DNA of 56,848 nt from Minisyncoccota bacterium (GTDB taxonomy: Bacteria > Patescibacteriota > Minisyncoccia > UBA6257 > 02-FULL-45-10c). Position numbers and translations under genes: made by a program. Of this stretch, positions 12,928 through 15,360 are shown in pieces. A model generated the notes under the pieces. It saw nothing but the letters and a program-made list of their open reading frames with translations, was not told the DNA's origin and made no database searches. The DNA lies in contig JAQUPE010000004.1 of the NCBI GenBank assembly GCA_028716745.1, forward strand, positions 1 to 56,848. The letters are read 5' to 3'. Each line of letters begins with the position of its first letter. The stretch's first letter is position 1.

Positions 12928-15360
12928 ATGAAGTTAGATTCAAGGGCAAAACTGTTTGTTGCCCGAGCAAACGCGGAATTGCTAAAGCGATATCCCGTGC
13001 TCGTGGGCGACGCAGTGGTAGTTTCCAGTGCGCTGGTTAAAAGCGACTGGTTAACATCGGTTTCGGTGGAACAATTTGAGGTAACGTTTTGCGATTTAAA
13101 AAACGGAACCGAAGAATTGGGTCTGCCGGACGGCATCCCGTTCGAAGAATTTGCGCAGTTGAAAGACTGTGTTATTCCGGCGGGCGCGTCTGTAAAACAG
13201 GGAGATATCCTTGTTGCGAGAGTTGTCCCCAACTCCAATCACTTAATGAATATGGAGGAGAGGCTGCTGGTCGCGATTTTCGGGAAGAAGGCGGAGTCAA
13301 TGAGGGATGGATCGCTGGTTTATCCCTTGCGGGATCCGGGAGTTGTGACGCGAGTAAAAGTGATGGCGAGATATAACTATCACTGCTCTGGCTGCAACGG
13401 AAATTTTCTTTCCGCAAGTCCTCAGACGAAATGCAAGCTATGCGGAAACAAAAAAATCCGCGACGAAAGAGGGAAAAACGAGCTGGCCATCACCGAAAAC
13501 CTGAAGATTCAGGTAGAAGTTCTCGTCAGAAGGGAACTGAAAATCGGCGATGTGCTATCGGACGACTACGGACACAAGTTCGTTGTCGCGTGCATTGAAG
13601 ACGAGTACAAGATGCCGCGCTTTAACGGGAAAGAAGTTTCCGTAATTGCGCGCCTCGACACTCTGAACTTCATGATGCATGAGAACGGATTTTTCTCGGC
13701 AATGTCCGATTCTGGACGGCGAAAGAAGCTGGCGGGAAAATCCTGCGGCGATTTTGTAAAGCTGCAGAAAAATACCCGCAGGTCCGAAGAAAAGTTCATC
13801 GCTCGCGGCACGGGGGCAAGCAATATTTTTGATATGCCCTTGGCAGTGGAAGAAGCCAGGCCGCCTCAGAAGTTAAATCTTGCGAAAGTCCTGGCGATGT
13901 TCAAGCTGGGCTATCGTCAGAATTTGCGGGAAGCGCTTTTTCACAAGGCAGATGACGGCGTAAGCAGAAAACAGTCTTACGAGAATCTGATAAGGGGAAA
14001 TGCCGTTTCCGGCAAGACGAACGAGGCGCTGAGCGTTCTCCGTTTATTTTCGCTTTTGAAATCTTGCTGCATGAATGCAAAAGCCGAAAATGGCGAAATC
14101 AAATTTTCCCTCGCAAGGACAGACCAGATTTTAAAATGGTCTTATGGCGAGGTGAAAAATCCTGACACGCTGGACTACCGCACCTACAAGCCGGAACGCC
14201 ATGGCTTGCTGTGCGAAAGTATTTTCGGTCCGATGCGTGATATGGAATGCAGCTGCGGCAGGTACAAATTCGCGCGCCACAAAGGGATCGTTTGCGATCG
14301 GTGCGGCGTCGAAATCGTCGAATCAAAAGTTCGGCGCGAACGTTTTGGGCATATAGTATTGCCCAAGCCGATCGTTCATCCGTGGCTCGCTGAAGAACTG
14401 GCCAAAAGGCTGGGAATAGCCGAGGAACGTTTTCTCTCGCTGATGATTTTGGAGCAGGGAGACACATTGATGAAAATATTGAAGGAGCAGAAGATTAATC
14501 CTTCAGAATATTTTATCGATGTTCTGCCCGTGCTTCCAGCCGATCTTCGCCCGTTATTTCCGATCGAGGGTGGCAGGTTTGCCACAGCCGATCTGAATGA
14601 TTTATACAGGCGAGTGATTAACAGAGTGTTGGTATTGAAGCGTTGCGTGGATTTGAAGGCGCCTATGATCATGAAGGAAAACGAATATAGGCTGCTTTAT
14701 AATTGCGTTGCGCATCTTTTCGACAATTCTGGCGAGGGCTGTGTTACAGGAGAGGGAAATCGCCGGCTGAAAAGCATCACTGACGAACTGGCCGACATTA
14801 CGGAGACCATGTTTTCAAAGCGAGTGAATTTTTCGGCAAGGGGAATTGCAATTCCGGATCCGACGGTGGAAAAAGGCAAAGTTAAACTGCCTTACCGTAT
14901 GGCTCTGGAGTTGTTTGCCCCAAAGGTCATAGCTCAGTCAGTTTTTCTCGGTTCAACCATTACGAAGGTAAAGCAGGCCATTCTGCGGAAACCTTTTGAT
15001 GAGAAAATCGTGAAGGCTGCAGAGCAGGCGATCGACGGACATCCCGTGCTTTTAATCACGGACCAGAACAATATCGGCGGTTTTCTGCCTGTAATTTCTG
15101 ACAACAAGGAAGATGAAGCAATTCGTCTGCATCCCGAAGATGCGGCGAAGCTGAAAATCAACTTTGTCGGTCAGAAACCGGTGCAGATCCACGTGCCGTT
15201 ATCCGAGGAGGCTAAAAAGGAGGCAATAAATCCTCTCGGAGCGGAACAGAAAGACATGATGCCCTTCTCCTTGGACAGGAAAGGGATAGTAGAGCATTTA
15301 TTGGCTCGGACATCGGTCAAGCTGACCGACCTGGACAAGATCGCGCTGGGTATATCCTAA
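12928..15360 (+). CDS. Fused, truncated RNA polymerase beta(C-term)-beta'(N-term) homolog, predicted catalytically dead
   Basis: RpoB-like: [45 protein letters not shown]. RpoC-like: [92 protein letters not shown] position reads KINFVGQ. Confidence 0.92.
   Translation: [810 protein letters not shown]

Follow-up and report, generated by a model that had tools for sequence, protein, structure and literature searches.

A single-chain beta/beta' protein from a landfill Patescibacteria genome is very probably a selected, non-catalytic paralog of the RNA polymerase core

RNA polymerase (RNAP) is among the best-studied enzymes, and its beta (RpoB) and beta' (RpoC) subunits occur in Helicobacter and Wolbachia as natural fusions (PRK09603 and PRK14844) in which the C-terminus of beta runs into the N-terminus of beta', within complete proteins of 2,200-2,900 amino acids (aa) that mostly keep the NADFDGD and GDKxAGRHGNK motifs. 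The same junction is found in a much shorter gene on contig JAQUPE010000004.1 (assembly GCA_028716745.1), a 57-kb stretch (56,848 nucleotides) of a Minisyncoccota genome from a landfill metagenome that is referred to as the window throughout. Unlike most of the full-length fusions, its product (P0001; 810 aa, an intact open reading frame [ORF] with an ATG start) retains neither motif, and it is very probably a selected, non-catalytic paralog of the RNAP core. A preliminary description, made by a model from the letters alone, had presented the gene as a single odd case; it is instead one member of an old family spanning several phyla. To our knowledge, no conserved non-catalytic paralog of the RNAP core has been described.

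The likeness of P0001 to the canonical subunits amounts to 35-45% identity over beta' 1-480, rising to 60% in the Zn-binding region, and to 33-46% over the beta flap segments, with the same fold and the same docking elements for sigma, NusA and NusG. It differs from them as one chain of 810 aa rather than two chains totalling ~2,300-2,750 aa, in lacking the lobes, protrusion and fork of beta and the bridge helix, trigger loop, jaw and cleft of beta', in possessing a family-specific Zn-ribbon and C-terminal tail, and in coexisting with canonical genes on the contig of a relative (L001). The cyanobacterial and plastid gamma subunit (RpoC1), whose NCBIfam models match P0001, is likewise a beta' N-terminal module ending not far past the active-site barrel, but it is ~620 aa long, catalytic, paired with RpoC2 and unfused to beta. 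The YonO protein of SPbeta, the crAss-like phage RNAP and the QDE-1-type RNA-dependent RNA polymerases hold both double-psi barrels in one chain as P0001 does, and the split RNAP subunits of jumbo phages present rearranged beta/beta' pieces, but all of these enzymes are active, keep a DxDxD-type motif and are very distant from P0001. Viral matches to P0001 reach 22-26% identity over half of the query only, and among viral predicted structures none covered more than half of the P0001 model.

The assignment of the two halves is supported by several independent comparisons. Pfam identifies a partial RNA_pol_Rpb2_6 domain at residues 28-231 (3e-18), an RNA_pol_Rpb1_1 domain starting at residue 390 (5e-42) and the start only of RNA_pol_Rpb1_2 (residues 631-672). 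The NCBIfam models for rpoC, rpoB and the beta/beta' fusions all match (E 1e-30 to 1e-96), with scores that are one third or less of the cut-offs for full-length proteins: 324 bits against 963.5 for the rpoC model TIGR02386, 105-126 bits against 801-896 for the rpoB models (including TIGR02013), and 321 and 270 bits against 5372 and 4632 for the fusion models NF007172 and NF011417. A phmmer search of the PDB aligned residues 390-498 and 524-766 to beta' ~17-125 and ~231-480 (E about 1e-83). Together with an anatomical alignment of P0001 and two relatives (P0002 and P0003) to the canonical beta C-terminus and beta' N-terminus from one relative's own genome, these results describe a fusion of the C-terminal part of RpoB, with its flap and C-terminal clamp, to RpoC residues ~1-505. 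An AlphaFold2 model built from a 46-member family alignment, the same set used for all residue counts below, is compact (mean pLDDT 90.9, pTM 0.88) and finds its best PDB matches among the beta' chains of holoenzyme and elongation complexes, with 35% identity across ~470 aligned columns. The domain layout in the preliminary description thereby agrees with both the profile searches and the predicted structure. Its RpoC-like half (residues ~390-767) is confirmed, with the Rpb1_1 match, Zn-binding domain, lid and clamp helices retained, while for its RpoB-like half (residues ~25-385) the flap with its tip helix and the C-terminal clamp piece are borne out and the hybrid-binding beta motifs are gone.

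Catalytic residues have been removed on both sides of the junction. The earlier claim that KINFVGQ replaces the NADFDGD motif of beta' was exact in its coordinates, and phmmer sets the two motifs opposite each other with the LHP...HVPLS flanks intact; no intact DxDxD was found elsewhere in the protein. Across the family the Asp triad is wholly absent in 34 of 46 members, reduced to one residue in 10 and to two in 2, and complete in none; the position of D464 is occupied by Glu in 22 members, and at 460 and 462 the residue varies widely (T, A, R, N, K, S, G). In the beta-like half, alignment to the canonical beta of a relative confirmed that GDKxAGRHGNKG has degenerated into a substituted 12-residue stretch, in which the equivalent of K1065 is Lys in 0/46 members (V or I in 35/46), and G207, D208 and L210 are invariant. 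Each of three 4-aa deletions coincides with a further loss: the basic switch-2 element KGKQGRFRQ, as anticipated, the NRAPTLHR motif (by alignment to a relative's canonical beta') and the acidic pair of beta NYED. The PSRMNxGQ region and GGQRFGEME are also lost. Also in keeping with the preliminary description, the bulk of the beta N-terminus is absent, with no lobes, protrusion or fork, as are the bridge helix, trigger loop and jaw: the chain ends near beta' 505, ~45 aa past HVPLS, with a conserved tail of the 8-residue type, and Pfam finds neither Rpb1 domains 3, 4 and 5 nor Rpb2 domains 1-3 and 4/5. Judged by alignment, P0001 therefore lacks both the catalytic residues and the full set of domains that define RpoB, RpoC and the full-length fusion polymerases, and with the catalytic and hybrid-binding residues, lobes, bridge helix, trigger loop and jaw gone it would be unable to synthesise RNA.

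The losses are accompanied by the retention of a specific set of surfaces. Relative to the canonical subunits, the VRRERFGHI motif, the LPVLPxDLRP lid, the HxPLS strand and the C-terminal clamp segment of beta (NLRExL..KxD) are kept. The flap that marks RpoB is present, its tip core lying at residues 110-119 of P0001 (family consensus EEKLLRAIFG) and the longer family consensus being equal to the canonical sequence, and so are the Cys4 site, lid and clamp helices that mark the N-terminal clamp of RpoC. The 50-residue family consensus of the clamp helices is nearly letter-identical to E. coli 260-309. The clamp helices are taken here to be the main dock of sigma region 2 and of NusG, and the flap tip that of sigma region 4 and the NusA N-terminal domain. 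Among the presumed contacts of sigma region 2, R275 is kept in 38/46 members, E295 in 40/46 and A302 as A, S, T or G in 40/46; among those of region 4, L901 is kept in 31/46, L902 in 32/46, I905 in 30/46 and F906 in 40/46. In terms of these residues, the family is one that appears to have dropped catalysis while preserving the two principal sigma docking sites of the enzyme. Along with the lid and the Zn-binding domain, these two sites also border the channel through which RNA leaves the enzyme. Of the 46 members, 14 have a CxxC(GDV)...C(P)xC insert in the flap. The coordinates of these elements are collected in Table 1.

Table 1. Features of the P0001 locus, with positions in the window unless a contig is named, and the leader copies of related loci
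Feature	Position	Strand	Basis or detail
Sigma-70-type promoter, TTGACA-17-TATTAT with TG extension	12820..12848	+	11/12 consensus matches
Structured 5' leader	12861..12927	+	covariation, 5 lineages
Leader hairpin 1, CUCUGG-GAAA-CCAGAG, then GCC and an A-rich spacer	12872-12887	+	
Leader hairpin 2, CCUGC-GAAG-GCAGG	12903-12916	+	
Shine-Dalgarno sequence AGGAGG	12918-12923	+	
Coding sequence of single-chain beta(C-terminal)/beta'(N-terminal) P0001	12928..15360	+	Pfam, NCBIfam, phmmer, alignment, AlphaFold2
Beta-like half, residues 1-385: double-psi barrel remnant, flap, C-terminal clamp/anchor	12928..14082	+	Rpb2_6, rpoB models, alignment
Flap-tip helix (E. coli beta ~896-910)	13249..13293	+	family consensus TxEEKLLRAIFGEK
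Flap Zn-ribbon insert CSGC...CKLC, residues 147-177, absent in canonical beta	13366..13458	+	Pfam, alignment
Degenerate 12-residue counterpart of beta GDKMAGRHGNKG (active-site lysines)	13546..13581	+	alignment
Beta'-like half, residues 390-770 = beta' ~15-505, non-conserved domain (~125-230) shortened	14095..15237	+	Pfam, NCBIfam, phmmer, alignment
Beta' Zn-binding domain (E. coli C70, C72, C85, C88)	14248..14304	+	all four Cys invariant, 46/46
Beta' lid	14524..14562	+	alignment; P537 and R541 invariant
Beta' clamp helices (coiled-coil, E. coli 260-309)	14578..14727	+	46-member consensus
Switch-2 remnant, basic KGKQGRFRQN deleted or replaced	14767..14844	+	alignment, 46-member comparison
KINFVGQ replacing NADFDGD (D460->N, D462->V, D464->Q), residues 743-749	15154..15174	+	phmmer, alignment
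C-terminal tail ending in an 11-residue family motif, aligned to beta' ~495-505	15235..15357	+	alignment, family comparison
Intrinsic terminator, 15-bp G+C-rich stem and T7 run	15366..15411 (stem and T7 run 15366-15401)	+	
Leader copy, L001	9932-10003		
Leader copy, L003	2051-2122		
Leader copy, L128	243-314		
Leader copy, L013	4151-4220		

Both the assembly and the pattern of substitutions indicate a real and selected gene. A Logan contig assembled independently from the same run (5,894 bp, even depth 11.1) covers positions 12800-15500 with zero differences and zero joints and spans the beta/beta' junction cleanly, so the chimeric misassembly that had been allowed for is rejected. Low-coverage strain variants in sister samples fall at four listed positions, all of them third codon positions, with three synonymous changes and one Leu to Phe. 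For P0003 and P0146, the closest pair with DNA available (62% aa identity), the proportion of nonsynonymous differences (pN) is 0.235 and that of synonymous differences (pS) 0.72, the latter saturated, which gives an omega (dN/dS) of about 0.12; pN is even along the gene, at 0.22-0.27 for each stretch of 140 codons, and neither the inactivated active-site segment nor the tail departs from this. The homologs are thus neither frameshifted nor evolving neutrally, their ORFs all being intact. The P0002 cluster comprises nine sequence variants, all of the full length of 732 aa, and six P0002 loci are identical in DNA; the P0002/P0416 pair has only 26 differences, all within the first 330 codons, and its omega of 0.47 is uninformative. 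Between the two strains of this cluster in L003 and L127, all 26 nucleotide differences lie in these codons, nine of the aa changes fall at residues 5-43 and the beta'-like half is identical, a pattern that suggests a recombination mosaic or a fast-evolving N-terminus.

The family became visible only through an exhaustive profile search. Canonical beta' and beta dominated the output of word-indexed searches, whether these used the full protein, the beta-like half or the 46-member alignment, and just two relatives built in this way emerged: P0002 (732 aa) and P0003 (835 aa), each at 33% identity and 100% coverage. A HMMER search with a three-sequence profile against 1.84 billion cluster representatives, of which the best 150 matches were inspected, revealed the same layout in about 50 representatives of 50%-identity clusters. 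At least 43 further representatives are full length (720-1,035 aa; their Zn-binding domain falls at ~370-480 and the profile matches them from ~10 to 805), besides fragments that contain the junction, and these homologs share both the junction and the catalytic loss foreseen in the preliminary description, none of them having the Asp triad; NADFDGD occurs in none of the short members and is present in the canonical beta' and most full-length fusions of the same list. When the beta' region was used for a neighbour-joining tree, the full-length fusions grouped with canonical beta' in one clade, which includes the RpoC encoded next to P0003, and the short proteins lay outside it, indicating an old paralog group rather than recent duplicates.

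Lookups of 20 cluster representatives led to metagenome-derived assemblies only, one of them an NCBI metagenome-assembled genome (MAG), and these clusters were unnamed or carried 'hypothetical protein' or domain-derived names. A scan of GTDB genomes with the family alignment yielded only canonical rpoB-rpoC junctions, all 80 loci being NADFDGD-bearing rpoC or truncated canonical genes; IMG/VR yielded only jumbo-phage beta' homologs and mis-binned host rpoBC, and tblastn against annotated phages and plasmids only canonical rpoB/rpoC. No database name matches the family, and no such family is described in the open-access full text and bioRxiv literature, though an earlier description elsewhere is possible. 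Several larger proteins stand beside it. The L051 locus (163-7014) of a 'Candidatus Paceibacterota' MAG (DATJQA010000074.1) encodes a full-length, apparently active rpoB-rpoC fusion of 2,284 aa with the same junction, and a fused rpoBC of this kind could be the type of ancestor from which the short family arose. The long fusions P0203 (2,836 aa, NVDFKGE), P0174 (1,647 aa, GASFGGQ), P0189 and P0242 are without an exact NADFDGD and may be inactive larger paralogs or intermediates toward the short family. Further, P0212, P0258 and P0289 (1,180-1,269 aa) form their own tree branch and combine a dead beta/beta' body with an N-terminal extension of ~400 aa that has no Pfam match and contains a CxC...CxxC motif.

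Six of the 46 members carry a C-terminal RNA_pol_A_CTD domain (PF03118, E down to 1e-21), the C-terminal domain of the RNAP alpha subunit (alpha-CTD). In the tree these triple fusions occupy three or more branches (P0155, P0158 and the P0191/P0195 clade), and they include P0155 (L009 10001-13108), P0191 (L010 3971-6790), P0195 (L014 10001-12877), P0158 (L132 10001-12829) and P0210. They come from high-GC phyla; P0155 also has a Sel1 repeat, and several have an acidic end, DDLDDLD. The fused domains keep the DNA-binding residues of the R265, N268 and G296/K298/S299 type, by comparison with the E. coli alpha sequence. Evolution thus appears to have repeatedly added a promoter- and activator-contacting module of RNAP to the non-catalytic body, so that the regulatory surface of the polymerase has been assembled more than once without its engine.

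The expression signals that the preliminary description had reported for the ORF (its own promoter, Shine-Dalgarno sequence and terminator) were all located. Promoter-like sites in the region number 3 where 3.9 would be expected by chance; near-consensus promoters also precede the homologs in L001, L003 and L128, at the corresponding position. Between promoter and start codon lies a structured leader with GNRA-type loops that recurs in five lineages (the window, L001, L003, L128 and L013), the proteins of which are ~33% identical. Pairing holds in 98.3% of cells, with compensatory double changes in 5 of 12 pairs; the covariation score was reached by 0/500 shuffles, and slid partners pair in only 28-48%. 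As only five sequences are involved, the covariation is supportive rather than conclusive. Each leader alone folds into both hairpins (z-scores -1.8 to -3.4), and a covariance model scores 63-79 bits at the family sites, which are the sequences it was trained on or exact duplicates of them, with no other significant match in 240 kb. A stringent pattern, probably too strict, matched the metagenome collection three times, in each case directly upstream of a 732-aa gene of the P0002 lineage. Rfam 15 returned nothing at gathering thresholds for the leader, the best sub-threshold matches scoring at most 17 bits (E about 1 or higher). The leader is absent in members from high-GC phyla. It may represent a new cis-regulatory, possibly autoregulatory, RNA and is put forward as a candidate.

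The genomic contexts of the family share no common neighbour, which points to a stand-alone gene unit present in several phyla. P0003 lies on a contig of 1,001,674 bp (L001), where rpoB, rpoC, dnaG and rpoD immediately precede it and a gene for a UvrD/AddA-type helicase comes after it; full-length rpoB and rpoC are 3-10 kb upstream of it, and the encoded RpoC (1,223 aa) has an intact NADFDGD. The closest counterpart of this RpoC is the RpoC part of a beta-beta' fusion from a Paceibacterota genome (52% identity), consistent with the P0003 subfamily having arisen in Patescibacteria. The idea that the gene is the 'middle piece' of a split or rearranged essential polymerase was rejected on the loss of catalytic residues and on these full-length genes. 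Elsewhere, the P0002 gene stands between metG and clpP, followed by rny; P0157 has NUDIX and RuvC genes nearby; P0146 has a tRNA gene upstream; P0195 lies opposite recR-ybaB-dnaX in the NCBI MAG GCA_034670305.1; P0158 is near a planctomycete-type cytochrome-domain gene; and P0155, P0185 and P0191 are on contigs of 68-71% GC. The window itself is ordinary chromosome of a small genome, with lepA, a release factor gene, ftsEX, dCMP deaminase, ThyA-like and RlmN-like genes, recG, cca, tgt/queA, dut, gap, a split transketolase and pilin-like LamG proteins. The neighbours of P0156 (892 aa, L015/L016, 19 contigs) are mostly without a Pfam match, and its contig also encodes a T4 gp30.3-like domain (Phage_30_3) and a large protein with PHROG matches of unassigned role; this contig may derive from a phage or another mobile element.

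The combination of lost and kept parts suggests how the protein might act, and the family is probably a new kind of transcription regulator. Within one chain, the flap and C-terminal clamp of beta are linked to the Zn-binding domain, lid and clamp helices of beta' and to two gutted double-psi barrels, elements which in the real enzyme form the sigma-docking platform and the RNA exit channel. This pseudo-core would bind the sigma factor of the cell as the core enzyme does, and whether it acts through sigma docking is judged an even question on present evidence. One outcome would be the withholding of sigma from the real polymerase, an anti-sigma action by core mimicry; another would be a 'pseudo-holoenzyme' that, once loaded with sigma, recognises promoters and stays bound there but makes no transcript, and the alpha-CTD fusions of relatives favour this promoter-bound version. 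In its most extended form, in which the pseudo-holoenzyme, carrying the housekeeping or an alternative sigma factor (and in some phyla its own alpha-CTD), binds and perhaps opens promoters as a global regulator of promoter occupancy or sigma partitioning, with leader autoregulation in Patescibacteria, the proposal is a tentative one. The promoter, terminator and conserved leader of the Patescibacteria-type members suggest post-transcriptional control, possibly autoregulation. The titration of sigma or other clamp and flap binders that the preliminary description proposed remains a hypothesis, strengthened by the selective keeping of the sigma-contact residues and by the alpha-CTD fusions of relatives.

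Precedent for such a pseudo-core comes from engineered systems. As summarised in PMC4057154, beta' 1-314 with sigma 94-507, less than one fifth of the holoenzyme, melts an extended -10 promoter (Young et al. 2004), the beta' fragment sufficing in vitro to activate sigma for -10 recognition. The docking of sigma region 2 on the beta' clamp helices switches it to high affinity for -10 DNA (PMC12000874). The natural protein holds the beta' 1-314-type segment and in addition the flap that positions sigma region 4, which makes a sigma-docking pseudo-core the best-supported model. With regard to the minimal holoenzyme (Young, Gruber and Gross 2004) and the complexes of the beta' coiled-coil with sigma (Young et al. 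2001), the likeness is that P0001 has a conserved Zn-binding domain and coiled-coil segment; the difference is that the engineered construct is laboratory-made, while P0001 is a natural, selected gene with the flap, both barrels and, in some members, an alpha-CTD, and with sigma binding that is predicted. Rsd, AsiA, FlgM and 6S RNA are functional analogues only, in that they control the availability of sigma or holoenzyme for productive initiation, as is proposed for P0001. Rsd, AsiA and FlgM are small and mask surfaces of sigma, and 6S RNA mimics open promoter DNA; none is homologous to P0001, the proposed mimic of the core.

Several points weigh against action through sigma docking. Sigma binding and its consequences are predictions, drawn from the conserved contact residues and, in one genome, the adjacent rpoD, and the E. 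coli residue numbers and sigma-binding roles on which the counts depend are those of the established literature. In P0001 the equivalent of A302 is Cys, and the clamp helices have diverged further in P0003 than in other members. The clamp helices and flap tip also dock NusG and NusA, and part of their conservation could be structural. P0001 itself has no alpha-CTD. The canonical rpoB and rpoC genes that the preliminary description expected elsewhere in the genome were found beside the relative P0003, but the 57-kb window contains no canonical rpoB, rpoC or sigma gene, and coexistence with a real polymerase in the window organism is extrapolated from that relative. Linkage to rpoD is seen in one of ~10 contexts, with no conserved operon partner, and no RNA-seq runs carrying the window gene are listed.

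Other roles can be drawn from the same retained parts. The flap, Zn-binding domain, lid, zipper and clamp helices surround nascent RNA in the enzyme, and it is conceivable, if on balance unlikely, that P0001 is an RNA-exit-channel module that binds RNA hairpins or NusA/NusG, as a regulator or a sink, with its own leader as an autoregulatory site. The covarying, GNRA-capped leader is specific to the gene in Patescibacteria-type lineages, and the additional flap Zn-ribbon of 14/46 members belongs to a class of motifs that often bind nucleic acid, both of which would suit this role. The leader is missing outside Patescibacteria, however, the alpha-CTD fusions indicate promoter DNA or activators rather than RNA, and no RNA would be threaded without the rest of the enzyme now that the basic residues of switch-2 and hybrid binding are lost. 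The flap of beta and the clamp or N-terminus of beta' are frequent targets of phage proteins, so the retained surfaces include known sites of phage inhibition, and the preliminary description had raised the option of a bait for such factors. A decoy or guard, in which a non-essential copy of these surfaces soaks up or senses RNAP-attacking factors, is nevertheless improbable: P0156 does lie among genes without Pfam matches and one phage-like gene, but no PADLOC-DB v2 match was obtained for P0001, P0003 or P0156, no effector or signalling domain is fused to the body, nearly all contexts have housekeeping neighbours and none resembles a defence island, and the family, not found in annotated phages, plasmids or IMG/VR, is old, vertically conserved and under strong purifying selection, unlike the fast evolution of an arms race.

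The retention of many beta/beta' inter-subunit interface segments, and the one genome in which the gene sits in the rpoB-rpoC-dnaG-rpoD neighbourhood, might point to a structural partner of the real RNAP, such as an assembly, dimerisation or hibernation factor that acts via core interfaces. This is less likely still, given that the two halves of the model satisfy each other within one chain (pTM 0.88) and leave few core interfaces free, and that a fused alpha-CTD would be superfluous if alpha were recruited. Very little likelihood attaches to a still-active, unconventional polymerase using other acids, for instance the invariant Asp of GDVLxD or a Glu at the third triad position. Both double-psi barrels are retained in the model, D208 is invariant and D464 is replaced by Glu in 22/46, but no member has more than two of the three Asp, 34/46 have none, positions 460 and 462 are variable, and K1065, NRAPTLHR, the bridge helix, the trigger loop and the template- and NTP-binding elements are missing. 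Finally, rpoB 3' and rpoC 5' ends are adjacent in most genomes, which could yield a chimera or a dead duplicate by accident and which makes a partial duplication the likely evolutionary origin of the family. That the gene is itself an artefact or a decaying pseudogene is scarcely credible, with a Logan contig at even depth, the same junction in >40 divergent clusters from many samples and data sources, intact ORFs, an omega of about 0.12 and a promoter, leader and terminator of its own; the pseudogene reading in particular was rejected for the lack of any frameshift or stop in >40 clusters, the low omega and the conserved homologs.

Should the sigma-docking pseudo-core be correct, P0001 and its relatives would be the first regulators to work by mimicry of the core enzyme, rather than by mimicry of DNA (6S RNA) or by masking sigma (anti-sigma factors), and a natural counterpart of the engineered minimal promoter-melting machinery. 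They would offer a way into the control of transcription in Patescibacteria, where recognisable regulators are few, and a compact single-chain sigma platform, available from many phyla, for structural work. Should the pseudo-holoenzyme version hold, it would represent an undescribed class of transcription control that is widespread in uncultivated bacteria, the genome-reduced Patescibacteria among them.

Other parts of the window also merit mention. A short class-I release factor of 242 aa (3995-4723), with a partial PCRF domain and an RF-1 domain and without the N-terminal domain, follows a tRNA-Thr gene, and no prfB frameshift site of the CTTTGAC type is visible in the 100 nt upstream of it. 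At 10147-11660 lie a dCMP deaminase gene and, after it, a divergent ORF that resembles thymidylate synthase but is matched only weakly by Pfam (2e-8), a pair that could belong to a modified-pyrimidine or atypical dTMP pathway. Three ORFs, of 714, 411 and 298 aa (20082-22226, 50384-51619 and 25613-26509), are without a Pfam match. The window further encodes a protein of 1,338 aa that combines lamin-tail and PKD domains, as well as three Laminin_G_3 proteins, of which one has a pilin-type N-terminal methylation motif (35728-39744; 235-1011; 41126-43703), surface proteins of a kind that is common in Patescibacteria-like genomes.

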